The notes under the pieces: model-generated
What the model saw: only the letters and a program-made list of their open reading frames with translations
What the model was told of the DNA's origin: nothing
The model's database searches: none
Part shown: piece by piece, positions 5,131 through 57,640 of the stretch
How the letters are laid out: every line of letters begins with the position of its first letter
Position numbering within the stretch: position 1 is the stretch's first letter
From: Anthoceros angustus
Lineage: Eukaryota > Plantae > Anthocerotophyta
Assembly: GCA_010909165.1 (NCBI GenBank)
Contig: MU008177.1
Span: forward strand, 186,001 to 250,000
Length of the DNA stretch: 64,000 nucleotides
Direction: 5' to 3'
Program-made: the position numbers and the translations under genes

Positions 5131-5660
5131 AGTCCCGAGGAAAGAGATGGAGAATAGAGCATTCCGGGGCCGAGGGAGCGGTGGAGCATTTTTGGAACCG
5201 CGTCATCACCTGGGATGGACGTCAGGGTCCTGGAATGAACGAACCCGCGTCCGAACATTCTAGAAACTCGGCTGCAGGGCTGCTGAGGAACATGGTCCTC
5301 CACGCTCCGCTGCAGAACGTCGATCGTGGTTCTGAGAGCGTGAGGAGAAGTGGAGGGGCGCATGGGCGCACCAGATCGGGCTGGCTGGCGTGGAGTGTTT
5401 TTTAGGGCTTGGAATTTTAAGCAGGGGATGCCCGCATTATCCAGCACATTCATCTCATGTACAGCAACAAACGAAACGCTGAGCGTTCCCAGGTGGGTCC
5501 TCTCTCATTCTGAGGACCTAGCTTGGATGGATGCATCATCCAGCACATTCGAATTCATACATGCATTAATATTGGGTACCCTTGACGTAGAGTAGCAGAC
5601 CTCCAGATCTCTTTATGTACAAGGAAGTTGGAACTCCGATCGTCTACCATAGTATCTTCC
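4991..5660 (+). repeat. Segmental duplication copy 2, truncated by the satellite array
   Basis: Matches 1-980. Similarity ends at 'tagtatcttcc', where the satellite begins. Confidence 0.9.
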
Positions 5661-8600
5661 GCCAATGGCTCCCCGCCACCCCTCCCGCCTCCTTCCCGCC
5701 ACCCTCCCCCACCAAAACTCTCCTCCATCCCTTCCCAATGGCACCTAACGCCTAACAATGGCTGGCCATACAATGGCGTAATGCCCGACAATGGTGCCCG
5801 ACAATGGCTGGCCATACAATGGCGCCAACGCACAAAGGTTGGCCCAACAATCGCTAGCTTAGCTCGCCAATGGCTCTACCGCCACCTCCTCGCCTCCTCC
5901 CCGCCACCTCCCCCACCAAAACGCTCCATCCCTTCCCAATGGCGCCTAACGCCTGACAATGGCCATACAATGGCCCGACAATGGCTGGCCGACAATCACC
6001 GCCCAAGAATCGTGGCCAACCTACCAATGGCTCCTCGCCACCCCTCCCTGCCTCCTCCCCGCCCTTTGCCACCCTCCCGCCTCCTCCCCGCCACCCCTTG
6101 CCCCCACCAAAACTCTCCTCCATCCCCTTCCCAATGGCTAGCCAAAAAGGCTACAATGGCGCCAATGCCCGACAATGGCTGGTCCGACAATCGCCGGCTG
6201 CCAATGGCTCCCGCCAGCCACCCCTTCCGCCTCGCCGCCTCCCGCCACGCTCCCCAACAAACACTCTCCTCCATCCCCTTCCCAATGGCGCCAACAATGG
6301 TTGGCCACAATGGCGCCCGATGATAATGGCCATGGCGCCTAACGCCCGACAATTGCTGGTCCGACAATTTGCTTGCCATGGCTCACGCCACCCTCCCGCC
6401 TCCTCCCGTCTCCTCCCGCCTCCTCCCCGCCACCCTCCCCCACCAAAACTCTCCTCCATCCCCTTCCCAATGGCACCTAACGCTGACAATGGCTGGCCAT
6501 TGTCAGCCAATGCCCGGCAATGTGGCTCGACAATGGCTGGCCCGACAACTGGCCCGGTGGGCAGCCCGGCGATGGGCGGCCCGGCTGCTGGCCCGACAAT
6601 GGCGACAATGGCGGCAATGGTCCGACAATGGCTGGCCCGACAATGGTGGCCGACAATGGCTACAATGGCGAATGCCCAATGGCGCCCGACAAAGGCTGGC
6701 CCAACAATCGCTAGCTAGCCAATGGATCCCACGCCACCCTCCCCCACCAAAACTCTCCGTCCATCCCCTTCTCAATGATGTGAAATGGCTAGCCATACAA
6801 TGGCCCCATGCCCGACAATGGCGCCCGACAATCGGTAAGCACAATGGCTCCCTGCCACCCCTCCGTCTCCTCACGCCACACCTCCCCCACCAAAACTCTC
6901 CTCCATCCTTCCCAATGGCGCCCCCAACCTTCCATACAATGGCGTAATGCCCACAATGGCTGGCGACAATGTTGGCCAGCACGCGCAATGGCCCGCCGCC
7001 ACCCCTCCCGCCTCCTCCGCCCGCCACCCTCCCCCACAAAACTCTCCTCCATCCCCTTCACAATGGCGCCCAATGTCCGAATGGTGGCCATACAATGGCG
7101 CGCAACGCCGACAATGGTGGCCGACAATTGAGACGCCTATGGCTCCCTGCCACCCCTCCCGCCTCCTCCTCGCCTCGCCACCCTCCCCACCTCCTCCCTG
7201 CCACCCTCCCCCACCAAAACTCTCCCTCCATCCCCTTCTCAATGGCGCCAATGGCCCGACAATGGCTAGCCATACAATGGCGCCAATGACAATGGGCGGC
7301 CCGATGCTGGCGGCCCGACAATGGTGGCTCGACAATGGGCGGCCCGACAATGGCTGGCCCGACAATGGCGGCAATGGCGGCCGACAATGGCTGACAATGG
7401 TGGCCCAACAATGGCTGCCATACAATGACAACGCCCGACAAAGGCTGGCCCAACAATCGTGGCTAGCACGCCAATGGATCCCCGCCACCCCTCCCCACCA
7501 AAACTCTCGTCCATCCCCTTCTCAATGTAGACAATGGCTAGCCATACAATGGCCCCATGCCCGAACAATGGCTGGCCCGACAATCGCTAGCTCGCCAATG
7601 GCTCCCGTGCCACCCCTCCCGTCTCCTCCCCGCCCGCCACCCCACCAAAACTCTCCCTCCATCCCCTTCCCAATGGCGCCCCAACATGGCCATACAATGG
7701 CGTAATGCGACAATGGCTGGCGACAATGTTGGCCAACGCTCCCCGCACCGCCACCCCTCCCGCCTCCTCCCGCCCGCCACCCTCCCCCACAAAACTCTCC
7801 TCCATCCCCTTCACAATGGCGCCCAATGTCCGAATGGTGGCCATACAATGGCGCGCAACGCCGACAATGGTGGCCGACAATTGAGACGCCTATGGCTCCC
7901 TGCCACCCCTCCGTCTCCTCACCGCCACACCTCCCCCACCAAAACTCTCCCTCCATCCCCTTCCCAATGGCGCCCATAACACCTGGCTGGCCATACAATG
8001 GCGCCCAATGCGGCACAATGGCTGGCGACACCGGCCACACAATGGCTCCCGCCACCCCTCCCGCCTCCTCCGCTGCCACCCTCCCCCACAAAACTCCTCC
8101 ATCCCCTTCACAATGGCGCCCAATGTCCGAGAATGGCGGCCATACAATGGCGCAACGCCGACAATGGCCCGACAATCGGCCAGCCTATGGCTCCACTTTG
8201 CCACCCTCCCGCCTCCTCCTCGCCTCGCCACCCTCCCCCACCTCCTCCCTGCCACCCTCCCCCACCAAAACTCTCCCTCCATCCCCTTCTCAATGGCGCC
8301 AATGGCTCCCTGTGCTAGCCATACAATGGCGCCAATGACAATGGGCGGCCCGATGCTGGCGGCCCGGCGGTGGTCTGACGGGCGCGGCGACAATGGCTGG
8401 CCCGACAATGGCGGCAATGGCGGCCGACAATGGCTGACAATGGTGGCCCAACAATGGCTGCCATACAATGACAACGCCCGACAAAGGCTGGCCCAACAAT
8501 CGTGGCTAGCACGCCAATGGATCCCCGCCACCCCTCCCCCACCAAAACTCTCGTCCATCCCCTTCTCAATGGCTAGCCAATGGCTAGCCATACAATGGCC

Positions 8601-9310
8601 CCATGCCCGAACAATGGCTGGCCCGACAATCGCTAAGCTCGCTTAATGGCTCCCGTGCCACCCCTCCCGTCTCCTCCCCGCCCGCCACCCCACCAAAACT
8701 CTCCCTCCATCCCCTTCCCAATGGCGCCCCAACATGGCCATACAATGGCGTAATGCGACAATGGCTGGCGACAATGTTGGCCAACGCTCCCGCACCGCCA
8801 CCCCTCCCGCCTCCTCCCGCCCGCCACCCTCCCCCACAAAACTCTCCTCCATCCCCTTCACAATGGCGCCCAATGTCCGAGAATGGACAATGGCGCGCAA
8901 CGCTCGACAATTGCTGGCCCGACAATCGGCGCCTGCCTATGGCTCACTTTGCCACCCCTCCGCCTCCTCCTCGCCACCCTCCCCCACCTCCTCCGCCGCC
9001 ACCCTCCCCCACCAAAACTCTCCCTCCATCCCCTTCTCAGGCCAGCACCGACAATGGCTAGCCATACAATGGCGCCAATGCCCGGCAATGGCGGCCCGAC
9101 AATTGTTGGCCCAACAATCATTGGACCGCCAATGGCTCCTCGCCGCCACCCCTCCCGCCTCCTCCCGCCCGCCACCTCCCCCACCAAAACTCTCCTCCAT
9201 CCCCTTCACAATGGCGCCTAACGCCCACAATGGTGGCCGACAATGGTGGCTCGACAATGGCCGACAATCACGACCCTGCCAATGGCTCACCGCCACCCCT
9301 CCCCCAAAAA
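5661..9310 (+). repeat. C-rich complex satellite array A (monomer ~150-300 bp built from ACAATGGC-type subunits)
   Basis: The marker 'caccaaaactctcctccatccccttcccaatggc' recurs about 20 times, with 'ccgacaatggctggcc', 'ccatacaatggcgcc' and C-rich tracts between markers. Confidence 0.92.
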
Positions 9311-9662
9311 CCTAAGATATCCTGTGGCATGAGCATATGCGAAATATCCCCTAGAATACACTATAATATGCAAGGAATATGCCCAAGCATATTACTTGAG
9401 CTTATCCACTTAGCTATTGTATCCTAAGAATACACTATAATATGCAAGGAATATGCCAAAGCATATTACTTGAGCTTATCCACTTAGCTATTGCTAACCA
9501 TATTTAATTAATACTAATCAATGCTTAATTAACACTAATCAATGCTTAATTAACATAAGCAGCTTAGATTAATTAACACTAATTATTTACTTAAAGATAA
9601 GTAATTAGATTAATTAATGCTAATCAAACACTAAACCCAAGTGCAGAGATTAGTATATCACA
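9311..9662 (-). mobile_element. Partial LTR (element-5'/U3 portion) of the same family as 36694-37254; probable 3' LTR of the Gypsy element
   Basis: Aligns with 36999-37254 ('cctaagatatcc...ttagta..tcaca'). It has a ~74 bp internal tandem duplication (9350-9495) absent from the other copy. Confidence 0.8.
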
Positions 9663-9825
9663 GATGAAGCGCACGAGGTAAGCACTTGAATTCATATAAG
9701 CACTTCCTCGACCAACAACCAAGCAAACAAATCTAATACGCGGTATATAGGTGCAAACCAATCCCCCGATAATGTGAGACTCCAAGTCAAAACATTATCA
9801 TTAGTAGGACTACATACGACGCACC

Positions 9826-9969
9826 TCATGTAGTGCATTGTGCACAAAACCAATCTTCCTGAATGTCGTCAAGAGGTGGTTGAACACAAAACATGTGGTA
9901 TCCCCTATTGCACCGATCACAAAGAAGCATTACATCATCATCAAGACGTCCACAAAACCGACACTCCAA
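9826..9969 (-). pseudogene. PHD finger at the integrase C-terminus
   Basis: ECRFCGRLDDDVMLLCDRCNRGYHMFCVQPPLDDIQEDWFCAQC is a canonical C4HC3 PHD with the conserved W before the last CxxC. Confidence 0.92.
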
Positions 9970-10082
9970 GTCTTTGGGTGGACGCCACATTGTAGGCCGA
10001 GTTGAGGGTCCAAATTGGGTAAGTGGCATGGTGCGCGATTCTTGAGGTGATCCTTCCATCTTCGCCATCGGATCCTTCGAGC

Positions 10083-11080
10083 TCAAGCACTCCATCTTTG
10101 CCTACTCGCACGACCCGCAAGATGACTCGGTGGATACCTCCAAGGTGTTGCCCGCTTCCGGCGTGTAGACATAATCTCCAACTTCGAACTTGCGCACCTT
10201 GGGTTTCCATGTCCCTCCTCGTGTGTAAGCATAGCGCAGCTTGATCCTGTTGCGCTATGGCAAGGTTCTCCATTGCCATGGGCATGATCCGTTTGAAAAG
10301 CTCGCCCGCCTTTCCGTGTCTCGTAGGCAATCATCCGCATTGCGCCAATCCACCGGGTGCTTGTAGCCTTGCTTGCCTCACGTTTGGCAAAATGGTTGTC
10401 GCCCATACAACAAGTAGTATGGTGAAAAATTGCTCAAGGTCGCTTGATTGCTCACCTGCCCCTAGCACTAGGTATGGCATCCCTTCATCCCATGTCTTGG
10501 TCATTTGTGAGACAATACGCAAGGCCCGCTTGAAGGTCCGCACCAAGCTCAGAAGTCCATCGGCTTGAGGATGATCTCTCGACGACGTCGATGATCAATC
10601 AAGCTCTGTCAAGCAAGTCTTGAAATTCCCCACGAATTCTTTGCCCTCGTCTGAGAACCTCGCACATGCTCCATATCGACTAAGAACGGAAGCCAAGAAC
10701 GCCTTATTGGTAAGCCGAGAGTCACGCTTGGGTAAGATGGCAACCTCGCACCACTTGCTGAAATGCTCCACCATTAGCATGACATGCTTGTTTCCAGTAC
10801 GCGTCTCTGGCATGTCTGGCATGAGATCCACACTCCACCTGTAGAAGAGTCCTCGGATCGGCAGAGAGTGAAGCACAACATCATTGGCTGTGAACCTTGC
10901 CTTCACTCGATCGCACACTCTACATTCTGCGACCAGCCTTTCCACATCTCCATACATCCTTGCCCAGAAGTGTGTGGCTCGAGCATGTCAGAGGTGCGCT
11001 TAGCACCAAAATGCCCTAAGCCTTCATGCACTGGTGATGAGTCTCACCCGGTCCTCCGGCTTGGGTACAATTCTATCTCA
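10083..11080 (-). pseudogene. Gypsy DDE integrase (zinc-binding plus rve core), frameshifted
   Basis: MYGDVERLVAECRVCDRVK; LPIRGLFYRWSVDLM; GNKHVMLMVEHFSKWCE; VLSRYGAC..SDEGKEF; VRTFKRAL..WDEGMPYL. Confidence 0.9.
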
Positions 11081-11409
11081 GTAATCACGGACATACATTA
11101 TGTCCTCCTTCCAATAGTACCGAGCCACCTTCTCGCGTAGCTTGGCCTCGCTCGAGATGAAAGCCCTTGTGGCAATTCCCGACCTTAGGAAGGTCACCGC
11201 TATTGCATCCGCCTGCATGTCCCCGACGGACTCGAGACACAAAGCGATGAGTGGAGGGTTCAAAGATCCTCATGCAGATGGCCAACATGGTATCTGGACT
11301 ACTCTCCCCCGGTTGCTCGTCATCCGAATCTTGCCTGCCCCCGTAGTGTCTTCGTTACGAGGTAGAGGATTCCTTGACAACCCATCGATTAGAGTGAACT
11401 CTACGCTCG

Positions 11410-11760
11410 GTGTTCGATGACAAAGTCATACTCCTGGAGAATGAGAGCCCACCTCGCCAGCTTTCCTGTAAGCTTGGCGTTCGTCATCAACCAGTGCAAG
11501 GGTTGATGGTCGGTGATTAGTCGAAATTGATGTCCAAACAAGTACGGACGAAAGTGTCCGCCCACATCGCAAGACATTCTCCTTCATAGGCGTAGTAGTT
11601 GGACTCACCGGTTGTTGCTCCGATGGCATAGGCAATGACATGTTCCTCTTCCTTGTCATTGATCTGCGCCAAGATCCCCTATGCCGTACTTGCTCCAATC
11701 GATGTAAAGTACGAACACCATCAAGTTTGATGACCAAGAATTGGCGAGCTCATGAGTCTA
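11410..11760 (-). pseudogene. Gypsy RNase H, frameshifted
   Basis: Shifted frames give DWSKYGIG, EEEHVIAYA, NYYAYEGECLA and KLTGKLARWALILQEYDF. Confidence 0.8.
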
Positions 11761-12554
11761 CCCTTCAACTCCATGAAAGCCGACTCCTCTTGAGTCCAAC
11801 GCCAAGTCACCAATGTCATTCAACGCAAGTCATGAACTTCTTCAACCCAAGAATGCTCCTCAATGGTCACAATCGCTCCACCTTGGTGGCATGCGGCGAG
11901 ATCCCAAATCCATGGCCAACTCCTCTCGTGCTCGCTCTCCTTGCCTCCAATCGACACTGATGGGCCTTCAACTCGACAAGCTGGCTCAATGCGATGATGC
12001 TCCTCAAAGAAGGCGAGATCCCAAATCAAGTTGGCTCATGTCTTCAACCAAATGGCATGTAATTCCACCGACAAGCAATCCCCAAACGCTTTTTCTTCTT
12101 GTCTTCTTGATCTCTACTTGGTGAAACCCTAGCCTCAAGTCCAATGTTGAGAAGAACTTGGCACCCAATGGTGTCGAAGATCTCTTGAGTCGGCATGGGA
12201 TAGTGGTCATGTGGGATTCGCTCGTTCAACGGCCGATAGTCACCACACATTCTCCTCTCCGTCCACAATCCATTCTCATCCTTCTTTTCGAAGCACCGCC
12301 GCATGCATCGCGAGTTAGATCGTCGAATCAGCCCTAGCTTGAGAAGCTCTTGGCATCGATTCTCAACCAAATCCCACTCGGCCTTGCGAGCATCCTCTGC
12401 GGAACACCGGTTCATCCGTGGTCAGTTCTATGTGGAACTTCCCTTTGGTGTACTTCCCCATCTCCGCAAGCGTGAAAGCAAACACATGTCGCGATGCCTC
12501 CAACAACTCCTTTAGCCGACGCTGATTGCTCTTCAACTCGACGCCTGTAACCAC
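11760..12554 (-). pseudogene. Gypsy reverse transcriptase, frameshifted and partly deleted
   Basis: LKELLEASRHVFAFTLAEMGKY; QELLKLGLIRRSNS; RMCGDYRPLNERIPHDHYPMP; AKFFSTLDLRLGFHQV; WNYMPFG. Confidence 0.9.
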
Positions 12555-12714
12555 TCATGTGGTTGTGGCTCGATGGCTTGCACGCTTCCTCTCGTGCTCG
12601 CCTCCTTGCCTCCAAACTCGCCTTCTCCTGAGATGCGAGTGCCGGAATGTCCTTCACCCACCGAACCCGCTTCAACCCCGCCTTCTTGGTTTTGAAGTTG
12701 GTAAGCGACTCCGC

Positions 12715-13690
12715 TAAACAACCAGGTCATCATGTTCACGCCAAATGCTTGCCCAAGCAATCGACACCGTTCCTTCTCGGTCACTCCGGTGTCTTCGTGG
12801 CTCCCATCAAATCCCATGGCCAACTCCTCTGTGTGCTGGCTCTCCCAAGGCCTCGCCATGTCCACCCACCACAACGCCGGGCCATGGTTCCAAGGCGTAA
12901 GACTTGGACTTAGACACAAAGGTTGGCCAAGCCGCCATGGGGTGTCAGGCGTGTTCACGAAGTGCGGCGGCTTGTCGCCTTGATGACTTGTTGGGCATGC
13001 CTTCCGATGCTAGCACATCCTTGACAACATGATTAGGTCGCTTGGTGAACGACCAAGACACTTCAAATGTTCCAAGGGAGCAAGGTTAGTCCACATGGAC
13101 CTCAACCTATGAGCCCTCGAACCAAATTGAGTCGCATCCAATAGAAGCTCCCGACCCAACACTCCTCGGATCGTGGCAAAGTCCTCCGAACTTGCTTCTT
13201 CACGCTCATGTATGCTGGTACATTCTCTAACATGTATCCACAAGGCCTTTCTTGCCCTTTCTAGATCAAGCGCAAGATCCTCATCAGGTCGTAGAACAAT
13301 GCTGTTCGTGGTTCCTTCAGACCTTGACCCTTGCCTGCAGAGGATAATCCTTGACATTCCCAACCTGCGATGACAAGGTCCACCGGTTGCCCAAGACAAC
13401 TCAAATGGGACAACCCTATCATGCGAACATCCATCGGCGCCTGCGGTAACCCTTCACCGACTCCCACGCCGAGGTTAGGTACTCCCCATCAAGTCTCTTA
13501 CGCTCGTGACACAATCCTTGCTTTTGGATCCGGGTCACAACGCACGTATCTTCGCACTTTGATGCCACACTTTAGCACTGCTTCCAAGCCGGTACTAATG
13601 CCTCCAAAGAGTTCCAGGAGCACTATGCCGCCTTCTCGAGGTCGCCATGTGATGACCTGGGTGTTTAGGTCACAAACAGGCTCAACCCTA
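12715..13690 (-). pseudogene. Retrotransposon-borne DNMT3-like C5-cytosine DNA methyltransferase, frameshifted
   Basis: Motif I IVLLELFGGISTGLEAV; motif IV VDLVIAGWECQGLSSAG...RTALFYDL; motif VI RPCGYMLENVP (~13217-13250); motif VIII LLDATQFGSRAHRLRSMWTNL; motifs IX-X ELAMGF...TEKERCRLLGQAFGVNMMTWLF. The motifs are in the correct order. Confidence 0.88.
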
Positions 13691-13699
13691 GGCAAGAAC

Positions 13700-14330
13700 T
13701 GAGGTCTTCTCGGCTTTCCTCGGTTCACCAGATTTCTGTTTTCGGCATTCCCTTTCCCAATGCCCTTGCAGCCCACACCAGTTGCAAGTGCCAGATCTTT
13801 TGGTCTGTCCTGGTTTGGAAAGACAACTACCAGGGGAGTTTCTATTCCCATTCTACGATTTGCCTTTTGATGCATAGAGAGAGTACTTTATCCGTCTTAG
13901 TGCATCATGATCCATGACTGGATGAACTGGCATGACTTTTCTCCTCTTGAAATAAAGCACCAACAACATTTGTAAAACTAATAGTGGTTGGTTTACCTGC
14001 AGCTACAACATTACCAGCATCCCGGAGGGTGGCTCCATAGCTGGAGACAAAAGGCTGGTAACTAGAAGGCAGGCTAGTTAGGAGTTGAGCAACAACATCC
14101 AGTTCACTCATGGTGGAGCCTAAGGAGATGAGTTGTGCACGAAGCTGACGGAATCTGCCAAGGAAAGCTGCAGCCTTCTCGCCTTCGCGCATCCGGAGGG
14201 AGAAGAGTTCCCCTCGGACAGCACATAGAATGAGAATGTTCTTCACCTCGTTTGACTGCGCAAGTTGTGTCCATATCTCCTCCGCTTTGTTCAGGTAAGC
14301 AACATCTGGAACCAGGACCTCATCAAGGCC
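13700..14330 (-). pseudogene. Ty1/Copia gag remnant (UBN2/Retrotran_gag_2 plus CCHC zinc knuckle)
   Basis: ELFSLRMREGEKAAAFLGRFRQLRAQLISLGSTMSELDVVAQLLTSLPSSYQPFV; knuckle CNWCGLQGHWEREC at ~13745-13786. Confidence 0.85.
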
Positions 14331-14692
14331 ACTTTTTTCTTTGAAGTCGATAGCATATGCAGGTTGAGCGTAAGGTGACGAGGCGGAGGTGGTGGAGGAG
14401 TAGAGGTAGACATGGTGGAGAGCACCTGGTCAGAGTAGCCAGCAGGAGTTAAGGGGAGCAAGAGCTCCCGAATTTGGCTCCTGTTCTGAAACGACCAGTC
14501 TCTTCACCAGATTAGTTACAGGTGAGTAACGATTCATCTCATCAGCTGAAGCGGGATGTAGATGAAGCAGTGCCTTCAAGAAACTGACGTGCCATTTGGT
14601 TCCCTTCCTCGTAGACGTGGCTCTGGAAAGGAAGAGGCGCCTAGGCGCTCACAACAGTTAGGATCTGAGCCCGAAGCGTGATCCCAGTGCCA

Positions 14693-14940
14693 TGTTTTGA
14701 TGGAAAGCCTCACGCAAGAAACAAGATCGCTCAAACAAAGAAATCAACTTTTTGTAATGAAGATCGACTTCCTCCACTCGAGCTTTCAGGTCCTGTAGAT
14801 CCCGAAACGTGATGATGAGACAATCGTCAGAAAGAATGGGGGTTCTTTGAGTTGTGTGGTGAGGTCTGTGGCGTTCGCAACAGTGAAATTGCTGTCTTGG
14901 ATTTGAAATCCTTGAAGAGGCTGAGAACGGTGACTGGATA
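14693..14940 (-). mobile_element. Putative Copia 5' LTR, left part (continues at 36480-36693 and 37255-37264)
   Basis: Starts TGTT at 14693, right next to a minus-strand TGG-starting PBS-like sequence (TGGCACTGGGAT). A matching ...AACA end lies at 37264 once the two insertions are removed. Confidence 0.4.
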
Positions 14941-15949: not shown

Positions 15950-17560
15950 CCTCGTCCGTCCTTCTTCCGTATGGCCCGTGCCCTTGTCACTCGCCCACCG
16001 CCGCCTCTACTCCTCCTCTTTTCCTCTTCGCCCGCCACCCTTTATCGCGGTGGCGTTGCCTCAACTGGGCTCCACTATGTAGGTCCATGCTCTCGGCCGG
16101 AGGCTGCAAGATATGTGTCTGCACGAAATTAGGCACCTCGTCCTCTTGACTGCCTCTTGGATCGTCCATTTATCGCGTCCCCCCGTCCTGTCCCCCTTGC
16201 CGCATCGTGCGGCCTTTGCCCATATCAAAGGCGCCTGCATGATGCCCTCTTGGACCTCCTTCATTCTCTCTCCCCCTGGACATCTGCCTCATGCTAGTGA
16301 CGCGCCTTTTTGGCCCTGCCCCGAGCATGGATGCTGCTGGGTGATCCACTGCTGTCCGTCCCCGCCACCCGCTCCTCCTACTCCCCCTGCGTTTTTTTGG
16401 CTGTCCACCGTGCACACAAGTGTGTTTCCTCCTGGTGACGGATCAGTTGCCCCCCTCCGTGGTCCACCACCCGACTCCTGCCCTCCACACTCATTGTTCC
16501 TGCCATTCAGCAGCGTCGTCATCCATCGATCCCACGGCCTCCACCCTCCGCAAACATGGTCACCTTCCGGTCTCGGGCACTCCTCCACCTCTTCTCCATT
16601 TGCTTGCTGCCCACGTGACCTGACCCTCGCCTCCACACTCATTGTTCCCATTCAACGGCGTCGTCAATCCATCCGATCCCAACGGCCTCCACCCTCCGCA
16701 AACATGGCGTCACCTTCCGGTCTGCACCTCCACCTCTTCTGTTGCTTGCTGCCCACGTGACCCTCCGCCGCCTCCAATCACACCATTCCGGGCATGCGGC
16801 TTCCACCAAACACAGGCGATCGTGGTGTCGCGGCACCAATTCGTCCATCTGTCGTTTCCCCTCTGCTGCCTCCCTCGCTTGCGCCCTCGTGATGCGTGGC
16901 CCGTCTCCACTTCACCCACTCTTGTTTCATCGTCGCCTTTCCCCCTTCCAATACCGTTGTGCCCGCCTCCTCCCCCAAGCCCCCCTTAGTGCCATCTGCA
17001 TTCCTTCCTAGCCTCTCCACGTCCACATCGCCACCACGTGCACCTGCTGCCTCCACCCCTTCCTTCCGTCGCCTCGGAAGGCCACCATATCGAGGATCCA
17101 TCTCCAATTCAATGTCATTAAGCAAAATGGTCATTTCCTTGTTCTCCTTGCAATGGCACGAATCTACGGTGTCTTGTCATACACTCCACCTTACCGCTGT
17201 AGGAACCTGCAGAACCCCACTATCGCGGACCGCCCACAGTGCATGGAAATCGTCCTCTTCAACCTCCCATACTGCCTCTTCTTCCGTTGGAAACCGCCCA
17301 TCTTGATTCTCAAACCTCACCACCAGACGCCCTCCCTTTCCCCATGGGTTTGGACCCATCCCCGTTTTGGCTAGCCTCTCTTTTGCTGCGATTTCGTACT
17401 TGATGGCTCAAACTTCCGTTCCTCTTCAACTCCATCCGAGCCCATGCAAGTGCATCTTCCCACTCTTCGTCATCCACCATGCTCGGTTTCTTCCATGTCC
17501 TCCCCTCTACCATTTCCTCTAGCGCCGGCGCCTTCTTCCACACATCGAGTGCGTGTCCGC
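15950..17560 (-). pseudogene. CACTA TnpA/ORF2-like remnant (Transposase_24-like), tentative
   Basis: KKPSMVDDEEWEDALAW...GSKPMGKGG...GRFPTEEE and WTIQEAVKRT, lying downstream of the transposase on the same strand. Includes a ~150 bp tandem duplication at 16482-16763. Confidence 0.45.
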
Positions 17561-20500
17561 GTCATCTGCGAGAAGTGTCGGCTTATCTTGGACTTGACCA
17601 CAGTGCAGGAATGCTTGAGACACGGATTTCACTAACGTGCTTTCTCTTCTTCGGGCGTCCGCCATCTTGCGGTGCAGTTCATTCACAACCTTCGTCCTCA
17701 CGGTACCAGCGATTGCGTGCCTTGCTCGCCCGAACAACATGAGTCCCTCCCCGCTTCATGTGGTTGCATGGCCTCCTTGACCATTTCACCCCATGCTTGT
17801 TTATCAAGGCTTTAACGATTGCATCGTTGTCCACCGCACTCACGCGCCCGGCGGATCCGAACCTGCCTCATCACAGGTTAGAACACCACCCCTTGCGAAA
17901 TTGATTGCGCCATTCGAGATCAAGTGCGTGTCGTATTGTCGCTGCCTCTGCTTCCGGCCTTCCGATTCCACTTTCCCTTCTTGCAATCGCCACCGCCCGG
18001 CCCTCGAAAGGTTGCCTCCCTTGTCCCCATGCTTAAACACCCCGGCATGCGGTGCTCTGTGTTACCGTTTGTCCACCATGCCCACTCGGCTGCAAACTTG
18101 AGCGTGTGCACACTTGCGGCGTCACTTGCGGCAAAGTGTGCACTTGGTGCACACTTTGCCGGCATCACTTGCCGTTAAATCGACTCCGACAACCAACCTC
18201 ATCCAAGCGTAAATAGCTCCTCCTCTATGTCGTTCAATTCTTGCACGCAATGCTCCAACTCGCATCCGTGGGAGGTTCCAGATCTCGGCGTCGTCAAAAT
18301 CAACTCCTGTTCGTGACCATCTCGCCCTCGCCTCTTACCTTCCTGGCCGTCTTGATGAGGAGGCCGCTTCTTGGTCGCCGATGTCGAATGAAGACCGCGG
18401 TGGGTGCGGGGATAGCGGCCGAGGCGGTTGCCCCCATCCTCCCCACCCGGATCGGTCCATCGTCGTCGGCCGTCGGCGGCGCCACGTGGTGTTCGCGGCG
18501 CCCGTCAGCGACTCGCCCAAGCCTCGGTCCGCCATCTTGCGGTGCGAGTTCATTCACTTCGTCCTCACGGTACCAGATTCTGCGTGCCTTGCTTCGCTCG
18601 GCCCGCGAACAACATGAGTCCCTCCCCACACTTCATGTGGTTGCATGGCCTCCTTCACCATTTCACCCCATGCTTGTTTATCAAGGCTTTAACGATGCAT
18701 CGTTGTCCACCGCACTCAGCGCGGCTGCAGACCTACCTCATCACGGTTAGAACACCACCCCTTGCGAAATTGATTGCGCCATTCGAGATCAAGTGCACTG
18801 CGTCGTGTCGCTGCCTCTGCCGGCTTGTCCGGCCCCTTCCGATTCCACTTTCCCTTCTTGCAATCGCCACCGCCCGGCCCTCGAAAGGTTGCCTCCCTTG
18901 TCCCCATGCTTAAACACACCGATGCGGTGCTCTGTGTTACCGTTTGTCCACCATGCCCACGGCACGCAAACTTGAGCGTGTGCACACTTGCGGCGTCACT
19001 TGCGGCAAAGTGTGCACTTGGTGTTGCCGGCATCACTTGCCGTTAAATCGACTCGCGACAACCAACCTCATCCGACGTAAATAGCTCCTCCTCTATGTCG
19101 TTCAATTCTTGCGCAATGCTCCAACTCGCATCCGTGGGAGGTTCCGATCTCGGCGTCGTCAAAATCAACTCCTGTTCGTGACCATCTCGCCCTCGCCTCT
19201 TACCTTCGCGGCCGTCTTGATGAGGAGGCCGCTTCTTGGTCGGATGTCGAATGGCCGCGGTGGGTGCGGGGATGAGCGACACCCGAGGCGGTTGCCCCCA
19301 TCCTCCCCACCCATCGGTCCATCCATCGTCGTCGGCGCCGCCGCCCGCGTGGTGTTCGCCTTATCACTGGCGAAGCAAGCCTCGGTGGCCATACTCTCCA
19401 CCTGTGAACCGGTTGTCCACCGCCTTCGTTCCATCTTTGAATGGCTTCCTCTCGGGCGGCGCCATGAGTCCGGTATGCGCATTCAAGGCACCATTTTGAA
19501 AAAGCTTGTTTGCAAAGGCGGCGGTGGTCATTTCTTGCTATCGGGACCAGTAGCACTTGCTACTTGCCCATAATCACAACATTTTCGACCACAACCTCGG
19601 ATTTGTGGAGCAATTTTCATGTCCCATTGGTTCTGTGCGTTACTCGTGATGTATGATATTGCCCAAATGGCGCGCTCTCAATGCCCCCATTACTCCATTT
19701 TAACGAATCATCGACTTCCTCGACCATTCCCACGCGTCACTTGGGTATTGGCACATTCCGCCATTGGATCATGCTTGTTTGTTTGGAAATACTTTAATGC
19801 CCACTTGGCATCTTGGTTTTGCCCCCATCCGTTCGCTACTCAAAGCGACATGCCACAATCTATGTGCCGGTAGCATGGGTTCCTCCTCTCTCCATCCCTC
19901 GCCGGAGTAGGCACGGCCAAGGCCCACCCTGTTTCCATCCACTCTCCGGATGCATCATGCCTTGAGTTACTGCGATGGCCACACAAATGGACCATCGATG
20001 GAGTGCACCACCTGCGGAAACCTTCTCGGTATTCACAAGGTCAAACCGTGTCGACTTCGCGATGGCCTTGTCCCTCTGGCCGACACTCGTACCATCCAAC
20101 CTTCAGCAGGCTGGATTATACTCCTCAGAAGCGCATCCGCGATGTTGCTCTATGTGGCCGTAGAAGACGCGCTCCTCTTGAGCTCCCGGCCCTGTCCCAC
20201 CCATGATAAACTTTACTGCACTATCTTTTGTGCTCCGCCGTTTATGCCTCCTGATACGAGGTGGCTGCCTTTGTTCCACACATCGAGAATTGCGTGTCCG
20301 CGTCATCCGCGTGTCGGCTTATGGACTTGACCACAGTGCAGGAATGCTTCATGATTTCACTAACCGTGCTTTCTCTTCTAACGCCCCGCCATCTTGCAGT
20401 GCGAGTTCATTCACAACCTTCGTCCTCACCAAGATTCAGCGTGCCTTGCTCGCCCGAACAACATCGAGTCCCTCCCCGCTTCATGTGGTTTGCATGGCCT

Positions 20501-22110
20501 CCTTCACCATTTCACCCCATGCTTGTTTATCAAGGCTTTAACCAGCATCGTTGTCCACCGCACTCACCGCGCCAAGAAGATCAGACTCACCCCATCACCG
20601 CGGTTAGAACACCACCCCTTGCGAAATTGATTGCGCCATTCGAGATCAAGTGCGTCGTCGGCCGTCGGCGCCGTCTGCCTCACGCTTGTCCCCCTTCCAC
20701 GATTCCACTTTCCCTTCTTGCAATCGCCGCCACCGCCCGCCTCGAAAGGTTGCCTCCCTTGTCCCCATGCTTAAACACCGCCAAGATGCCGGTGCTCTGT
20801 TACCCGTTGTCCACCATGCCCACTAACCCACCGCAAACTTGAGCGTGTGCACACTTGGCAAAGTGTGCACTTGGTGTACACTTTGCCGATCACTTGCCGT
20901 TAAATCGACTCGACAACCAACCTCATCCGACGTAAATAGCTCCTCCTCTATGTCGCTCAATTCTTGCACGCAATGCTCCAACTCCGCATCCGTCGGGTGG
21001 GAGGTTCCAGATCTCGGCGTCAAAATCAACTCCTGTTCGTGACCATCTCGCCCTCGCCTCTTACCTTCACGACCGTCCGAGGAGGCCGCTTCTTGGTCGC
21101 CGATGTCGAATGAAGACGCACTGCGCGGGATGAGCGACATGCCCGAGGCCGGTTGCCCCCATCCTCCCCACCCGGATACGGTCCATCGTCCGACGCTGCC
21201 GGCGACGCCGCCTGGTGTGCGCCGCTTTCAGACGCTGACCGCAAGCCACCGCCATACTCTCCACCTTGAACCAGTCCACCGCCTGCTCCATGTCAAGGCA
21301 ATGGCTTCCTCTCGGTGAAAGCAGGAGCCATGAGTCCCTATGTCGCATTCAAGACATTTTTTGAAAAAGCTTGTTTGCAAAGGCGGTGGTCATTTATCTG
21401 CTACCGTACGCGTGCACTTTTACTTGCCCATAATCACAACATTTGTCGACCACAACCTCGATTGTGGAGCAATTTTCATGTCCCATTGGTTACGTGCGTT
21501 ACTCGTGATGTATGATATTGCCCAAATGGCGCAGCGCTCTCAATGCCCCCATTACTCCATTTTAACGAATCATCGACTTCCTCGACCATTCCCACACACT
21601 TGGGTATTGGCACATTCCGCCATTGGATCGTGCTTGTTTGTTTGGAAATACTTTAATGCCCACTTGGCATCGGTTTTGCCCCATCCGTTCAGCTACTCAA
21701 ACGACATGCCACAATCTATGTGCCGGTAGCATGGGTTCCTCCTCTCCATCCCTCGGAGTAGGCACGGCCAAGGCCCACCCTGTTTCCATCCATCGCCTCC
21801 GGATGCATCATGCATCGAGTTACTGCGATGGCCACACAAATGGACCATCGATGGAGTGCACCATACCGGAAACCTTCTCGGTATTCACAAGGTCAAATCC
21901 GGTGTACGACTTCCGCAGCGATGGCCTTGTCCCTCCTGGCCGACACTTGTACCATCGAATCTTCAACAGAATTGGATTATACTCCTCAAAGAACTGCATC
22001 CGCAGTATTTGCTCTATGTGGCCGTAGAAGAGGCGCTCCTCTTCAGGCTCCCCGGCAGCCCCTGTCCCACCCATGATAAACTTTGCACACACTACACTAT
22101 CTTTTGTCCG
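17540..22110. repeat. Internal tandem duplications of ~0.8-1.8 kb blocks (A-A'-B-A''-B')
   Basis: 17541-18480 matches 18527-19340 (partial) and 20279-21220; 19340-20240 matches 21220-22110. Copies differ mainly by small indels. Confidence 0.85.
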
Positions 22111-25100
22111 CTTGTCCGCCTCACTGCTCGAGGTGCCTTTGTTCCACATGTGACTATGTGCGATTGCACGCGGGCCATCCATTATAGCCCTCACTTCGTG
22201 GGTCATAGCAGGATGCCCCTCCCAAGCGCTCACCGCCCTTCTTACATGCACCCACCTCTTGAAACTTCGTCGTTCCTCATGTGCACCGTACATCCTCACC
22301 TCGTCTTAAATACATGTCCAAAAGCTGCATCACCTTCGTGTGATCGGCACATAAGTATGGGCTGGCGCACCTCAGCGGCATCCATTGTATGACGGCCGAC
22401 ACCCAGACTTTTCTCCCACACGGTCCTCGGGACTCCATGATCCACCACGTGACCATAGTAACGCGGAGGAATGACATGCCGAAATGCATACTCTCCTCTC
22501 TCATATACGGCTATCTTTGGACTCTGGTTTGGCGCCGTCACTTCTGGATCCTAAGTATCTCTCCACCGGGTACATCCACAGTGTGTGCCAATGCAATCCT
22601 CGTCCACTAAATGTATTATGAGGTGGGTTGATATATCAAAGACCTTTGGAGGAATTGCTTTTCCGAGCACATCACCATGACCTCTTCTCGTTGTGCTTGA
22701 ATTTCATGGCGGTATTGTCCGGCAAATCCATCTGTCTGATCGACCCAATTTTCACAACCGCCTTGTACACCTCGGGTCTATGCACCCCGAAGGACGATGG
22801 GAAGATGATTTCCGGCATGATGTGCGATCATGGCACTTCAAGCCCACTTTGCCCCCTCTAATTTCGCTCCTATGTTAGACCCATAGCACGTGGGCGCTTT
22901 ATGCGTTTAATTCTCTCTATGACTTGGCGGAGGTCGTCTTTCGCCAAAGCGTAAGGCGCCTCGGGCAATGGCGATCCTCTCCTACCGCCACAACCACCTT
23001 TTCCCTCCATTGGCTTCCATGTCCATCCTTGATGCTAGGTCGTCTCGCTCTCCCGTCAAAGTGTGCCATATGGCCTCTGCATTGTTCTTTTCCACGTGCA
23101 TGACATCCTTTGGCGCCATCACAAGAAGGTGGCGCCAATATGGGAGCACCCTAAACAGAGAAGACATCACGCGTTCCAAAATTTCCTCATTGCGGATCTC
23201 GGTGGCGCACCTTCTCTGCGTACCATATCATCACCACATCATCAAGCGTTGGTGGCACGGGTGGGGGGAGTTCCGCCGTCCATCGTGCCTCCATGTCTTC
23301 CCGTCCGCTATCGCCGGGCAACCACCTCTGCCAACATAAACTGCTTTTTAATTGATGAGAATAGCGGAATCCAGTCCGAATCCACACACGCCCGGGTCCC
23401 TTTCACTTGCAATCCGATCGGTGCCCAACCACAGGTAGTCGGCAATGACGTTCGGCCCCGCACCTAAAATGCCTCCTAGGATCGTTCACGGTATTGAAAA
23501 GTCTTCCATGTCCACCCCTCTCACAACTCTTCCGGTTCTTCTACCGGGCGCCATATAAACATCAAAATTTTTACCATGCCCGGTCTGGTACAATGAGAGG
23601 CATGATGACATGGGCGTCCTTTGTGCAAGCCGAGGCATGTTGTGAGCGAATAGCATAAGCGGCCATATGGACGTGTTGACACTGTGACCAAAGGGGTTGA
23701 AGCCGTCGTGCATAATGCCAACCTCAAGTTGCGAGGTTCATCCCGAACCCTTCAAGCGCATCAAATACTCTCCATGTTGGGGTGTCGCCATCATGGACAT
23801 GTCCCCATTCTCGCTTTGCCTCCCGACGTACCAAGTCATCATCATGCTATTTAGGCATTCGAACATGCGTTTCAATCGCGTCTTAGAGGAAATGCCGGAC
23901 CTTGCGAGAACGACATCTCGCTCATCAAACCCTTCCTTGTACGCGCGTGCCACTGCGAGGGCAATGGGCTGCCGCGTACTCACCCCCGAATAGAATACAA
24001 TCTTTTCACAAGCATGGATTTTCACGTATCTTGGCCCAAACATGTGCAACACTTTGCCTCGTACATGTCCTTGACTTGTTCGGCGGCAAAATATCCACAC
24101 TTAAGAGCTTTAAAAGTGCCGTCACGCGTCACGATGTCATACATCGTTTGCCACGGCAACAACGGTGTTGCGCTTAGCCCTTTCTTTCGATTGGACTTCC
24201 TCTTCAATGTGGTATAACGTTTCGCCGCGGCTCGACAAGCGGCGCCTGGACTCCATCCGCGCCCATCGCAACATCCGTGGCTTCCGACCACGTGTACGCC
24301 GGGCATATCATCACCTCCGAACCCTCATCCATACTTTCGTCGTCGGAACTACTAGTGTGGTCGGTAGGATGGCCACCGCTCGTTCCTGTCGGATCGAGCC
24401 GTATCCGAATCAATGGGGTGCGGGCGTCAAGGCACGCGCTCTTCTATGCCGCTCGTGTCGCCGACGCAAAAGCCACCTTAAAGCTAGAATTGGAGTGCAT
24501 TTGCTGGCCATTGATGCGAGAGAACTCACGGCCACGCGGGTGCACAGGCGGTGGCGCAGATGAATTCTTGAAATGTGTGCGAATACGAGCTGCGAGCTCG
24601 CGACCTGATGGCGGCGGGGACAATACATGTACACCGTGACCGCATTTCGTGGCATCCTCCCGTCGTGATCGGTAGGCACGGCAACACCTGACAAAGGTGG
24701 TACATCCGTTATCCGAACGCCCGTCCCCGGTGTGCAATCATGACTTCATGACCCATAAACACGACGACGTAGGACACAGGCGTGCTTGCGAAACCATGGA
24801 CGGAAGCACAAACGCGTCACACCGCATCGCATTTCGTGGCATCCTCCCTGTGGTCGTGATCCGTAGGCACGGCAACCACGACAGCAAAGGTGGTACATCC
24901 GTTATCCGAACGCCCGTCCCCACGGTGCAATCATGACTTCATGACCCATAAACACGAACACGTAGGACTGGAACGTGCTTGCGAAACCATGGACGGAAGC
25001 ACAAACGCCACCGCATGGAGATCCGCCGTCCGTGATGACCCACCGGCGGGTAAGTCGACCGACGATCGGGGCAAAGCGGCTACGCCGGCGATGCGCATCG

Positions 25101-26560
25101 ACGGCATCGGGGGCGACAAGAACCTCGCGCCTCGGACGCAGCAGCGAATTTGCGCAGAGCCACCACCGTCTTCCAATCCCAACTCGGGGGACGGAGTTCC
25201 CGTCCATCGTATCACCATGTCTTCCCACCGTCCGCTATCTCCGGGCAACCACCTCTGCCAACATAAACTAATTGATGAGAATAGCGGAATCCAGTCCAGA
25301 ATCCACACACGCCGGGTCCCTTTCACTTGCAATCCAGTGGTGCCCAACGGTAGTCGGCAATGACGTTCAGCCCGCCCCTAAAATGCCTCCTAGGATCGTT
25401 CACGGTGAAAAGTCTTCCATGTCCACCCCTCTCACAACTCTTCCGGTTCTTCTACCGCCATATAAACATCAAAATTTTTACCAATGCCCGGTCTGGTACA
25501 ATGAGAGGCATGATGACATGGGCCCTTTGTGCAAGCCGAGGAGGCATGTTGTGAACGAATAGCATAACGGCCATATGGACGTGTTGACACTGTGACCAAA
25601 GGGGTTGAAGCCGTCATGCATAATGCCAACCTCAAGTTGCGAGGTTCATCCCGAACCCTTCAAGCGCATCAAATACTCTCCATGTTGGGGTGTCTCGCCA
25701 TCATGGACATGTCCCCATTCTCGCTTTGCCTCCCGGCCAAGTCATCATCTGCTATTTAGGCATTCGAACATGCGTTTCAATCGCGTCTTAGAGGAAATGC
25801 CGAGGACCTGCGGGAACAGATCTCGCTCATCAAACCCTTCCTTGTACCGGCGTGAATCGAGGGCAATGGACGCTGCCCGTACTCACCGAATAGAATACAA
25901 TCTTTTCACAAGCATGGATTTTCACGTATCTTGGCCCAAACATGTGCAACATCGACTTTGCCTCGTACATGTCCTTGACTTGTTCGAACGCAAAATATCC
26001 ACACTTAAGAGCTTTAAAAGTGCCACAGCCGACGCCACGATGTCATACATCGCCACAAGACAACACAATGTTGCGCTTAGCCGCTTTCTTCGATTGGACT
26101 TCCTCTTCAATGTGGTATAACGGCGCCACCGCAAGCACGCTCGACTCCATCCCCGCGCCCATCGCAACATCCGTGGCTTCCAAAGAACTCGCCCACCGCA
26201 TATCATCACCTCGAACCCTCATCCATACTTTCGTCGGAACTACTAGTGTGGTCGGATGGCCACCGCCGTTCCTGACCCATCTCGAGCCCGTATCCGAATC
26301 CGTCTGGTGCGGAGACGCCAAGACGGCCGCGCTCTTCTATGCCGCTCGTGTCGCCGACCGCAAAAGCCACCTTAAAGCTAGAATTGGAGTGCATTTGCTG
26401 GCCATTGATGCGAGAGAACTCACGGCCACCGCGGTGCACAGGCGGTGGCGCAGACAGGAATTCTTGAAATGTGCTTGAATACGAGCTGCGAGCTCACTGG
26501 CGGTGGGACAATACATGTACACCGACCGCATTTCGTGGCATCCTCCCTGTGGTCGTGATC
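21700..26560 (-). pseudogene. En/Spm transposase (Transposase_21, DUF4218, DUF4216), frameshifted and partly duplicated
   Basis: YVKIHAC; HDGFNPFG..SIWPLMLFAHNMP; GKNFDVYM; LPYWRHLLVMAPKDVMHVEKN; WMYPVERYLG (~22550-22580); LLKIRWYK..GFDLVNT..GPFVWPSQ. Confidence 0.88.
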
Positions 26561-26880
26561 GTAGGCACGGCAACCACGGCAAAAAGGTGGTACATCCGTT
26601 ATCCGAACGCCCGTCCCCACGGTGTGCAATCATGACTTCATGACCCATAAACACGACGACACGTAGGACTGGAACGCGTTTAAAACCATGGACGGAAGCA
26701 CAAACGCCACTTATGGAGATCCGCCGTCGTGATGACCCATCGGCGGGTAAGTCGACCGACGATCGAAAAGCAGACGGCGATGACGATGCAGACTGACAAG
26801 AACCTCGCGCCTCGGACATGAGCAATGAATTTGCGAACCGAGGAGCCACCACCGTCTTCCAATCCCAACTCGGGCGACGA
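23270..26880. repeat. ~1.9 kb tandem duplication of the transposase core, plus a ~190 bp tandem unit
   Basis: 23270-24790 matches 25195-26690; 24640-24830 matches 24830-25010. Confidence 0.85.
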
Positions 26881-27214
26881 GAGCACGGTTGGCGAGCACG
26901 CCGGATGCACGCAATGTTCGCGGCAGTGCATGCTGGCGGCGGTGGAAGCTGCCGGGCGTTATGTCAAGCGTGGTAGCCGACTCTTTGACGGGCCCGGAGA
27001 TTGGGCGTAGTGTAGGGTGACACCGCAATGGAAAGGGAGGATGTGCTACCGGCTAGCTTGGTGGTCGGCACCAGCGGTCGGGATGGTTGACACGTATCGG
27101 TCATTGCATTTGGGGATGCGTGTTTTGATTTAAAGTTGATTACACACAATCCGAAGTTCGACAACGGCCTTGATCGTCCTAAGCTTGCAAGCAAATGCGA
27201 ACAAAGCGTTCGAG

Positions 27215-30200: not shown

Positions 30201-31440
30201 GTAGAGCGGCAGGAGGCGTGTTTCACTGGAAGACAAGCTCGCCCTCGGATGCGAAGATGACCAAAACAAAGGTAGTAGCGTGAAGCGAGGGCAAGGTGGT
30301 GACATTTAAAGCGGAACACGACCTTAGGCAGCCTCTTGTCCTCCGAGCCACATCGGGTTGCGGATGAGAGGATCTTGAATTTCACCGTTCCTTACATGTG
30401 AGAAAGGAGACATGGCGGTGGCATGGCGGTCATCGAGTTTTATTGGGTGACGATGAGAAGTACACGTAGTGATCAAAGAAGAAGGACTTTCCCATCCCGT
30501 TTAATTACGGTAATCATATACCCCGAGGTATAAACCGTCCCTAGTCACACGACGCCGTGATCCGAGGAGACGGCAAGAGCCAAGGGCGGCGGCACTCCAT
30601 ACCGGTCCTTGATGGCCGACAAGAGGAGAGCAACCTCCGTCCATCATCCTTGATGGCCATCGTCATTGACAGGCTGCAGCCCTCGTCCTTGATGGGCATC
30701 GTCGGTTTCCAGCAACAACGATGTGCAAACACTTCGCAATGATCCACAAGCAGGTGAGGAGCGGAATGTTGCGGGTTCGTCAAATGCGGATTCCACAACA
30801 CTTCACACCGCAGCATGAACTTGCGTTGGAGAAAAGGGCCAAACAAAAGTGTTCACATGCGGCGCCTCCCGAGCACCAATCCATACCGTGCGGTCACACA
30901 ACACCATGCCCGCACGGTAGAAGGACCACCTCGCTAGAGAAGGAACCACCTCGCCGAACGGCAAGGCGTGAGGGATAGCAAGAGGAGACAGCTCCACGCC
31001 GTGAAGGGCGGGGACACCGCGCCCCCAACATTCCCATATGATCCTTGATGGCCATCGACAGTATTTCCAGTTGGGCAGCTGAAGATGGAGACATGCACAC
31101 ACGCCTCGTGCTGCGAGCTACCAGTGGATACCCACGGTGGTTTCTGACGGAAGCTCGTTGCGGCATACTTGCACATGTCCGTCATAGACGGCACAAGGTA
31201 GAGCGACAGCAGGGAGGCGTGTTTCCGCTGGAAGACAAGCTCGCCCTCGGATGCGAAGATGACCAAAACAAAGGTAGTAGCGTGAAGCGAGGGGCAAGGT
31301 GGTGACATTTAAAGCGGAACACGACGACCTTAGGCAGCCTCTTGTCCTCCAGGCCACATCGGGTTGCGGATGAGAGGATCTTGAATTTCACCGTTCCTTA
31401 CATGTGAGAAAGGAGACATGGCGGTGGCATGGCGGCCGTC
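27215..31440. repeat. Tandemly duplicated and triplicated internal blocks of unidentified coding-like sequence
   Basis: 27215-28090 matches 28735-29590; 27965-28730 matches 29460-30200 and 30430-31200; 30200-30430 matches 31210-31437. Confidence 0.85.
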
Positions 31441-32409
31441 ATCGAGCGATGACGGTTGGCGGTAAATTCATGGAGGCGGTGGCGCGGGGCAAAGCGAGCC
31501 GAACACGGTAGATGTCATGTCTCCCAAGGTCCGGATATCCTTTGCGGCAGTGCGGCGCGGTGGCGTCGAGCCGTCACTGGCGTCTGCCAAGGTGTGAATA
31601 CATGACACGTTACGCCATGTGACGCGTTTGATTGGTGGGTACTGGAGTCTCGAACGATGCACATCATTATATGGGAGAACGCGAATTGGCATATATGGCA
31701 AATTCACATACGGGTCCTTCATTCATGGCATAATGAATGGGGCATTTAGTTTGCTTGAATGGCTCTCACGTGCCACCTACCGTCCTTGCACAATGGTGTA
31801 GAAGAAGCAGATACCGAAACAGAGAACGGGCGCGTCCGTCAATGCACACGACCTTCAGACATGGCATGTTTTCTACCATGCCCTGGCTTTTCAAATATTA
31901 AAATGGCTTCACCACACCTTTCTTGGACAACGGTGGAGAAGACAAGTTTATGCGAGAGATAGGGAGCCATTGTCTTTGGTTCATGGCAGGTTGTACGAAG
32001 GCCATGACATTGTCATGGCCTTCAACATAGGGGACCATACATGGCATGCATGGAGGAATGGCAAGCCAAGGTTGCAGGTGGCATAGCACGCCACGAAGTC
32101 TCCCTCCTCTCTCCTCTTTCCTCCCTCCCCACCGCCGCGCCCCGCCGCACCACTCCCCACACCATGGCCACCGTCATACCGTCACAGGGCTCCACGGAAT
32201 GTGGTCGCGGACATCGTCGCATCGGGCTGGATCGGTAGGCAATGTGGTATGCGAACGGGCAAAGCATAAAAATAGCAAATTAACACATGCATGGTCCGTG
32301 GAGCATGGGGTTCTAATGGTCTTGCCCTTGAAATGGCATGCCACATCTGTGGGCATTACCCAGGCGAAATGGCATTGCGAACACTTGTCCACAAAGGGCA
32401 AATTCATCT

Positions 32410-37254: not shown

Positions 37255-37264
37255 TAGCGTAACA

Positions 37265-37860: not shown

Positions 37861-37869
37861 TCACAAATA

Positions 37870-57608: not shown

Positions 57609-57640
57609 CGTCTCGTCTCGTCTCGTCTCGTCTCGTCTCG
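57609..57640 (+). repeat. (CGTCT)n pentanucleotide microsatellite
   Basis: About 6 perfect units. Confidence 0.9.

Follow-up and report, generated by a model that had tools for sequence, protein, structure and literature searches.

In a stretch of 64,000 nucleotides (nt) of the Anthoceros angustus genome (contig MU008177.1, positions 186,001 to 250,000; hereafter the window), the minus strand from 13700 to 9826 encodes, in that sequence, a DNMT3-like DNA methyltransferase (DNMT), reverse transcriptase (RT), ribonuclease H (RNase H), integrase and a PHD finger. By sequence comparison this copy is one member of a multi-copy Ty3/Gypsy-type retrotransposon family and not a one-off capture of a host gene. 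The reading we favour, and regard as fairly probable, is that the Pol polyprotein of this family joins an active writer of DNA methylation, the DNMT3-like domain, to a reader that targets integration, the PHD finger with which Pol ends. The DNMT would be packaged in the particle and travel with Pol, and in active relatives it would likely methylate the freshly made DNA copy of the element itself or the site of insertion, as a published proposal for such elements has it. The PHD, for its part, is predicted to anchor the integration complex to nucleosomes whose H3K4 is unmethylated.

The original prediction, which was made from the letters of the window alone, named C5 methyltransferase motifs I, IV, VI, VIII and IX-X in order on the minus strand, and all of them are located there: motif I (LLELFGGISTG) at 13620-13588, motif IV (DLVIAGWECQGLS) at 13380-13342, motif VI (YMLENVP) at 13236-13216, motif VIII at 13138-13082, motif IX (ELAMGF) at 12826-12809 and motif X (RCRLLGQAFGV) at 12769-12737. 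The domain as a whole (12716-13681) is intronless and frameshifted, with an in-frame stop near 13261. It is followed on the same strand by the N-terminal part of RT (12023-12379, profile positions 2-129 of 205), RNase H (11401-11795, found by Pfam and the family profile), integrase (10000-11219, comprising the H2C2 zinc-binding part, the DDE core and a C-terminal region, found by Pfam, the family profile and alignment to the related protein P0032) and, at the integrase end, the C4HC3 PHD finger (9826-9966) closed by a stop codon at 9828-9826. The predicted order of RT, RNase H, integrase and PHD after the DNMT thus stands, although a complete RT does not: its catalytic core is missing, and a scrambled stretch (11895-12027, minus strand) of short pieces repeating 12587-12615 and 12814-12830 has taken its place. 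A Pfam domain search, which had been proposed as a check, finds DNA_methylase (E 1.8e-7, 31.4 bits, cut-off 22), RT_RNaseH (E 1.1e-11) and PHD (E 4.8e-10, 39.7 bits, cut-off 24) above the Pfam cut-offs; rve (E 1.2e-4) and Integrase_H2C2 (E 1.4e-3) are both under cut-off, and the plus strand of the element has no Pfam match. Family profiles score 134.6 + 76.7 bits for the DNMT and 49.1 bits for the PHD, whereas the highest scores among 50 shuffles are 2.3 and 4.1 bits. Across integrase and PHD, 203 of 466 aligned residues are identical to P0032, and the alignment to a second relative, P0356, is a single run from 13666 to 9835.

Relatives of the element share this architecture. The window's DNMT piece, used as a query, returned five longer proteins among 349 candidates, its leading matches being from the liverwort Calypogeia fissa (44%), a Gag-protease-DNMT frame and Closterium, and a second query limited to the DNMT returned 46 proteins, 25 of which have a PHD on record. 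Three unbroken frames (P0356, P0347 and P0360) have the DNMT ahead of RT together with a PHD. With the window copy, which lacks the protease, they represent a first domain order, protease-DNMT-RT-RNase H-integrase-PHD, which the Calypogeia and Closterium proteins follow as far as they extend; the full order in relatives is Gag-protease-DNMT-RT-RNase H-integrase-PHD. The second order, RT-RNase H-DNMT-integrase-PHD, is that of P0258 and P0389 of the chlorophyte Scenedesmus sp. PABB004 and of many further proteins. Among metagenome loci, of which the best 80 of 442 were analysed (many of them near-copies or one insertion assembled twice), RT follows the DNMT in 64, the protease lies directly before the DNMT in 67 (63 of the 67 loci with at least 800 nt upstream) and the second order is absent. 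The contiguity of PHD and integrase holds in the window and in the unbroken frames, and a PHD is present in 27 of the 30 related loci that reach at least 500 nt beyond integrase, in agreement with the original description of a C4HC3 finger ending the integrase. In a search of 1.84 billion representatives the profile also covered integrase and PHD as arranged in the second order; its totals take in unrelated integrases and its best 150 are weighted towards that order, so that it is no guide to how common each order is. DNMT and PHD occur together in 85 of those best 150. Named hosts of relatives are Calypogeia, Closterium and Scenedesmus. In viral contigs there was no sign of the element: the 12 loci returned are weak, none better than E 1e-10, and most are matches to short motifs.

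Domain trees were built by a quick method and are unrooted, with no outgroup and with near-copies removed. Rows with the DNMT before RT cluster in the DNMT tree (15 of 16, support 87, unstarred) and in the RT tree (8 of 9, support 89, unstarred), and the integrase tree divides them. Domains of the window are placed among the first-order rows, at unstarred nodes, and the window's DNMT groups with the element DNMTs of Calypogeia and Closterium. That a host DNMT3 gene was captured just once at this locus, or that the assembly made a chimera here, is hardly credible. In favour of either stand the noisy repeats of the window and the scrambled RT core; against them, the same order recurs in frames without breaks and in 64 of the 80 metagenome loci, and the DNMT, besides its grouping with other element DNMTs, has no introns. 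None of the three outcomes that the original prediction had named as refuting it was observed. It is overstated in one respect, for the writer-reader pair extends well beyond this locus and is the rule in a large lineage that reaches chlorophytes.

Some relatives carry further features. The N-terminal part of P0356 contains CCCH zinc fingers, and P0321 has two PHDs. In one subfamily, a stop codon followed by CAA is found 82-92 codons ahead of RT in 10 of 49 in-frame loci (L001:4661, L002:4509, L003, L004, L007, L010, L011, L013, L035 and L037), and proteins P0008-P0011 and P0013 terminate 91-150 residues past the DNMT. This context resembles what we take to be a leaky-stop signal which, if real, would yield Gag-protease-DNMT in excess of RT and integrase. 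The signal is absent from the window copy.

The DNMT3-like assignment made in the original prediction agrees with the ranking of solved structures. For the window DNMT, DNMT3A/B come first in the PDB (E 3.8e-8), ahead of DRM (1.4e-4) and HaeIII/HhaI (4e-4), and with the family DNMT profile DNMT3A/B are again first (5.6e-17, versus 1.2e-8 and 5.4e-8 for DRM and HaeIII/HhaI). The second, frameshifted half of the window DNMT has no meaningful PDB match on its own. Cytosine methylation is the predicted activity of the domain, and all 18 relatives that were aligned conserve the catalytic Cys, the motif VI Glu-Asn and the two motif VIII Arg residues without exception. A structure model of P0048 is mediocre, with a mean pLDDT (predicted local distance difference test) of 60 and values below 50 in the second half of the DNMT; a fold search with it is dominated by RT (top match, the RT of Ty3), and the model is mute on the motif IV substitution described below.

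The PHD finger of the window has UHRF2, KDM5A, ATXR5, KDM5B, KMT2D and UHRF1 as its best solved relatives. The cage Trp of H3K4me3 readers is absent from 139 of 140 PHD sequences and is replaced by Gly in 123; Asp follows the third Cys in 130 and stands three residues before the first Cys in 65. The window finger has the Gly and both Asp residues. A missing cage Trp and acidic residues at these positions are, we presume, features of readers of unmethylated H3K4, and the finger is predicted to favour unmethylated H3K4 in chromatin away from active promoters.

Both domains are under purifying selection in the relatives, as judged from the ratio of nonsynonymous to synonymous substitution rates (dN/dS) in 22 of the 80 metagenome loci, a sample in which pairs are not independent and dead copies are included. 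For pairs with dS below 0.3 the median dN/dS is 0.42 for the DNMT, 0.36 for the PHD, 0.35 for RT and 0.46 for integrase. The DNMT median (0.42 in 88 close pairs and 0.29 in 7 farther pairs) is similar to those of RT and integrase. In the window element the observed/expected ratio of CHG is 0.55, a depletion that fits host silencing.

Several observations weigh against the pairing of an active writer with a targeting reader. Motif IV of the window reads EC, with Glu where Pro usually precedes the catalytic Cys, and Glu-Cys is found as well in 81 of 134 tallied domains. The isolated DNMT of KnitGypsy from Klebsormidium gave no methylation in yeast, a result that its authors considered inconclusive (PMC5890265). 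The dN/dS of the relatives' DNMT (0.29-0.42) indicates weaker constraint than the values below 0.2 published for the Klebsormidium DNMT (PMC5890265). The observed/expected ratio of CpG is 0.80 in the window element versus 0.41-0.68 in three neighbouring genes, so that the element bears no footprint of heavy CG self-methylation. In the first domain order RT and RNase H separate the DNMT from the PHD, and since the two lie apart in Pol they could be separated by protease cleavage. Finally, P0388 and L003 end after integrase without a PHD, which makes the finger dispensable in some relatives.

The Glu in motif IV, the inactivity in yeast and the undepleted CpG speak for a reading in which the same family keeps its DNMT for binding, as a DNA- or RNA-binding module or a decoy, or in which the domain acts on RNA. 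We consider this unlikely, though worth keeping in view, given the invariant catalytic and motif VI and VIII residues, the Pro retained in 47 of 134 domains and the activity of related SymbioDIRS-Dnmt3 domains, which methylate CG (PMC5890265). Alternatively, the PHD might not pick the insertion site at all and might instead keep or activate the DNMT on new nucleosomes once insertion has taken place, with the element silencing or camouflaging itself. The resemblance of the finger to the UHRF1/2 type would suit such a role, as would the second domain order, which places the DNMT directly before integrase-PHD so that the three may remain one protein. This too is unlikely, for the PHD occupies the place of the targeting chromodomain of chromoviruses (bioRxiv 10.64898/2026.05.21.726589) and, in the order seen in the window, more than 900 residues separate it from the DNMT. 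We continue to prefer the pairing of an active writer with a reader that targets integration. The DNMT-PHD pair would then parallel the ADD reader and catalytic domain of animal DNMT3A.

The repeats of the family are split. Relatives are laid out as A (~290 nt), coding region, G-run, B (~180 nt), A and B; the complete A-coding-B-A-B arrangement is present in 7 related loci and B...B in 13 of 24 eligible loci. Their ends are TG...CA, and a perfect 4-nt target duplication was seen by eye in 4 of 6 loci examined. The window copy, whose termini are placed from the window itself plus relatives, has the same layout on its minus strand at 9665-9767, where a polypurine-tract-like G-run (9767-9763) is followed by repeat B1 (9762-9665, ending in CA). 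Repeat A2 (9311-9662, minus strand) starts with TG 2 nt after B1 and is cut by a GC-rich tandem array; B2 is missing, A1 and B2 having been lost through truncation. A solo A-B unit of 561 nt (36694-37254, minus strand; TG...CA, with flanks GCTA and CTAG and no clean 4-nt duplication) lies 27 kb away and is the product expected from A1-A2 recombination. In L015, L018, L040, L045, L062 and L080, as in the window (9767-9661), the G-run stands ahead of B1 rather than of the TG end, and the B1/A2 junction, read by eye, is CA-(2-3 nt)-TG and resembles a circle junction. No TGG-type primer site was seen after A1 in these six related loci, also read by eye. The array that cuts the 3' repeat of the element belongs to one family of GC-rich degenerate tandem arrays with units of ~140-190 nt, found at 5600-9310 and 37850-39800.

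The original prediction likened the element to a DNMT-bearing retrotransposon of Klebsormidium, and the likeness is borne out. KnitGypsy-Dnmt3 of Klebsormidium nitens carries its DNMT3-like domain within a Gypsy Pol (de Mendoza et al. 2018, PMC5890265), and it shares with the present family the intronless state of that domain, purifying selection on it and DIRS-like A-coding-B-A-B repeats combined with a Gypsy domain set. This kinship with Gypsy-DNMT3 is one of kind, set by the published descriptions and not by Klebsormidium sequences. The present family differs in its land-plant host, in the two positions of the DNMT in Pol and in the PHD that ends integrase; the term 'PHD' is nowhere in the main text and three supplement files of PMC5890265, Fig. 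4c aside, and the finger may already be drawn in that figure. The 2018 paper places the acquisition of the Gypsy DNMT in the lineage of K. nitens alone (PMC5890265), whereas the present lineage reaches a liverwort, Closterium and Scenedesmus. SymbioDIRS-Dnmt3 is alike in having a DNMT3-like Pol domain, two domain orders and split repeats, but has a tyrosine recombinase where the present family has a DDE integrase with target duplications (PMC5890265). The EpiLTRs of Cymbomonas and Euglena are long terminal repeat (LTR) elements which, as is predicted here, join methyl writers with a histone reader, in their case a chromodomain, DAM and a DNMT4-related enzyme; the present family has no DAM and instead pairs a PHD with a DNMT3-like enzyme; the preprint that describes them cites Gypsy-DNMT3 as streptophyte (bioRxiv 10.64898/2026.05.21.726589). 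Chromoviruses also have a chromatin reader at the integrase C-terminus, which is a chromodomain and not a PHD (Neumann et al. 2019, PMC6317226), and 'methyltransferase' occurs 0 times in the main text of that Gypsy survey. A PHD C-terminal to a Gypsy-like integrase is found in the Ginger1-9_HM transposase, although Ginger1-9_HM is an animal DNA transposon with Ulp1 and has neither RT nor DNMT (PMC2836005).

Assignment of the element to three known groups was considered and rejected. No chromo match is found in the window or in 33 relatives scanned, as would be needed for a chromovirus. DIRS elements are set apart by the DDE integrase found here instead of a tyrosine recombinase and by the 4-nt target duplications of relatives. 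Troyka has CG...CG ends and a 3-nt duplication and is confined to animals (PMC12440569), in contrast to the TG...CA ends and 4-nt duplications of the present family.

The open-licence literature, Repbase reports and figures aside, yielded no account of land-plant Gypsy elements that bear a DNMT or a PHD, and the accessible parts of PMC10952607, PMC12344493 and PMC8075897 hold nothing on DNMT-bearing Gypsy elements in land plants. PMC12344493 labels the streptophyte elements 'LTR Copia', contrary to the 2018 paper, and an opinion paper states that land plants such as tracheophytes have no methylase-encoding transposons, these having disappeared in the course of land-plant evolution (PMC6338049). 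New relative to the literature found are the land-plant hosts, the PHD with features of an unmethylated-H3K4 reader, the second order in Scenedesmus and the leaky-stop-like subfamily.

The land-plant host is well supported by a neighbouring gene. PHAF1, ~40 kb from the element, shares 80% identity with clubmoss and moss sequences and ~70% with those of flowering plants, and its tree (34 of the 120 matches listed) groups it, at a starred node, with mosses, liverworts and Selaginella, outside the moss and liverwort clades. No hornwort was named among the sequences of the tree, and a hornwort host is likely by elimination. The host is accordingly a non-seed land plant, and the extension of the known range of DNMT-bearing Gypsy elements that was foreseen for such a host follows. 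A multi-copy land-plant family with liverwort and chlorophyte relatives argues for an old, persistent lineage rather than an acquisition confined to Klebsormidium. A bolder proposal, which we hold only tentatively, is that this old lineage, from chlorophytes to bryophytes, carries a working module in which the PHD would dock on H3K4-unmethylated nucleosomes and the DNMT3 domain would seed methylation. The DNMT would have been relocated within Pol, the leaky-stop subfamily would make it in Gag amounts, and the split repeats would imply that there is no standard tRNA primer site. If this is true, bryophytes, which keep their own DNMT3, would possess another source of de novo methylation, this one selfish, and a PHD replacing the chromodomain would be an additional way to target integration. 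Bryophytes are tractable and methylomes exist for them, so the role of a retrotransposon methyltransferase becomes testable.

The window copy cannot be active as assembled. Its coding region breaks off at 13700 (joint at 13700-13701) and adjoins an unrelated Copia-type gag fragment with a CCHC knuckle (13745-14315, minus strand; Retrotran_gag_2 E 5.1e-12 at 14315-13923, knuckle at 13786-13745). The knuckle ends ~45 nt before the break and on the same strand, as it might in a new chimeric element that joins a Copia gag to a DNMT-bearing Gypsy pol. Such a chimera is nonetheless very improbable: relatives have their own gag and protease, the knuckle and the DNMT are in different frames as assembled, and two contigs stop aligning to the window at 13700 and continue with other sequence. 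In two DNA runs with different organism labels every bin of 9282-13860 is covered, at a summed depth of 75 to 37,000, and contig depth, in the hundreds or thousands beforehand, is only 0-27 across the Copia gag region (13861-14824), near zero in both; the runs share only 0.26 and 0.06 of the window's words and are probably from relatives, and depth is not copy number. One run has a contig depth over the DNMT several-fold above that over RT and integrase, but contig depth is no basis for ranking parts. A family profile search of the whole window finds no family gag or protease.

The original prediction called the copy frameshifted, which holds with a qualification. Depending on the reference, 20-33 frameshifts are counted, mostly deletions, and many of them look like assembly noise. 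At 16469-31446, 6 of the 11 pairs of repeats compared contain more small indels than substitutions (e.g., 37 to 15 and 40 to 14), and nearby frames of 435 and 797 codons are clean; indel-rich repeats beside clean gene frames are the signature of unpolished long-read sequence in repeats. Because the frameshifts are probably in part assembly errors they say little about the age of the copy, while the truncations and a few in-frame stops may be real breaks.

The remainder of the window contains other mobile elements and host genes. A CACTA/EnSpm-type DNA transposon of 21.5 kb (14941-36476) has 46-nt inverted ends, an ATA 3-nt duplication on both sides, a Transposase_21 match (E 1.5e-6) and several internal tandem duplications. 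A Copia RT fragment (37260-37730, plus strand; RVT_2 E 6e-19) lies on the strand opposite to the Copia gag at 13745-14315. Host genes occupy 43516-60530 and 1027-1497 and include a UBA/FAF1-domain gene, a nucleotide-sugar transferase, the intronless PHAF1, an F-box fragment and two nodulin-like/NFD4 transporter genes, one of which has introns of ~86 and ~95 nt.

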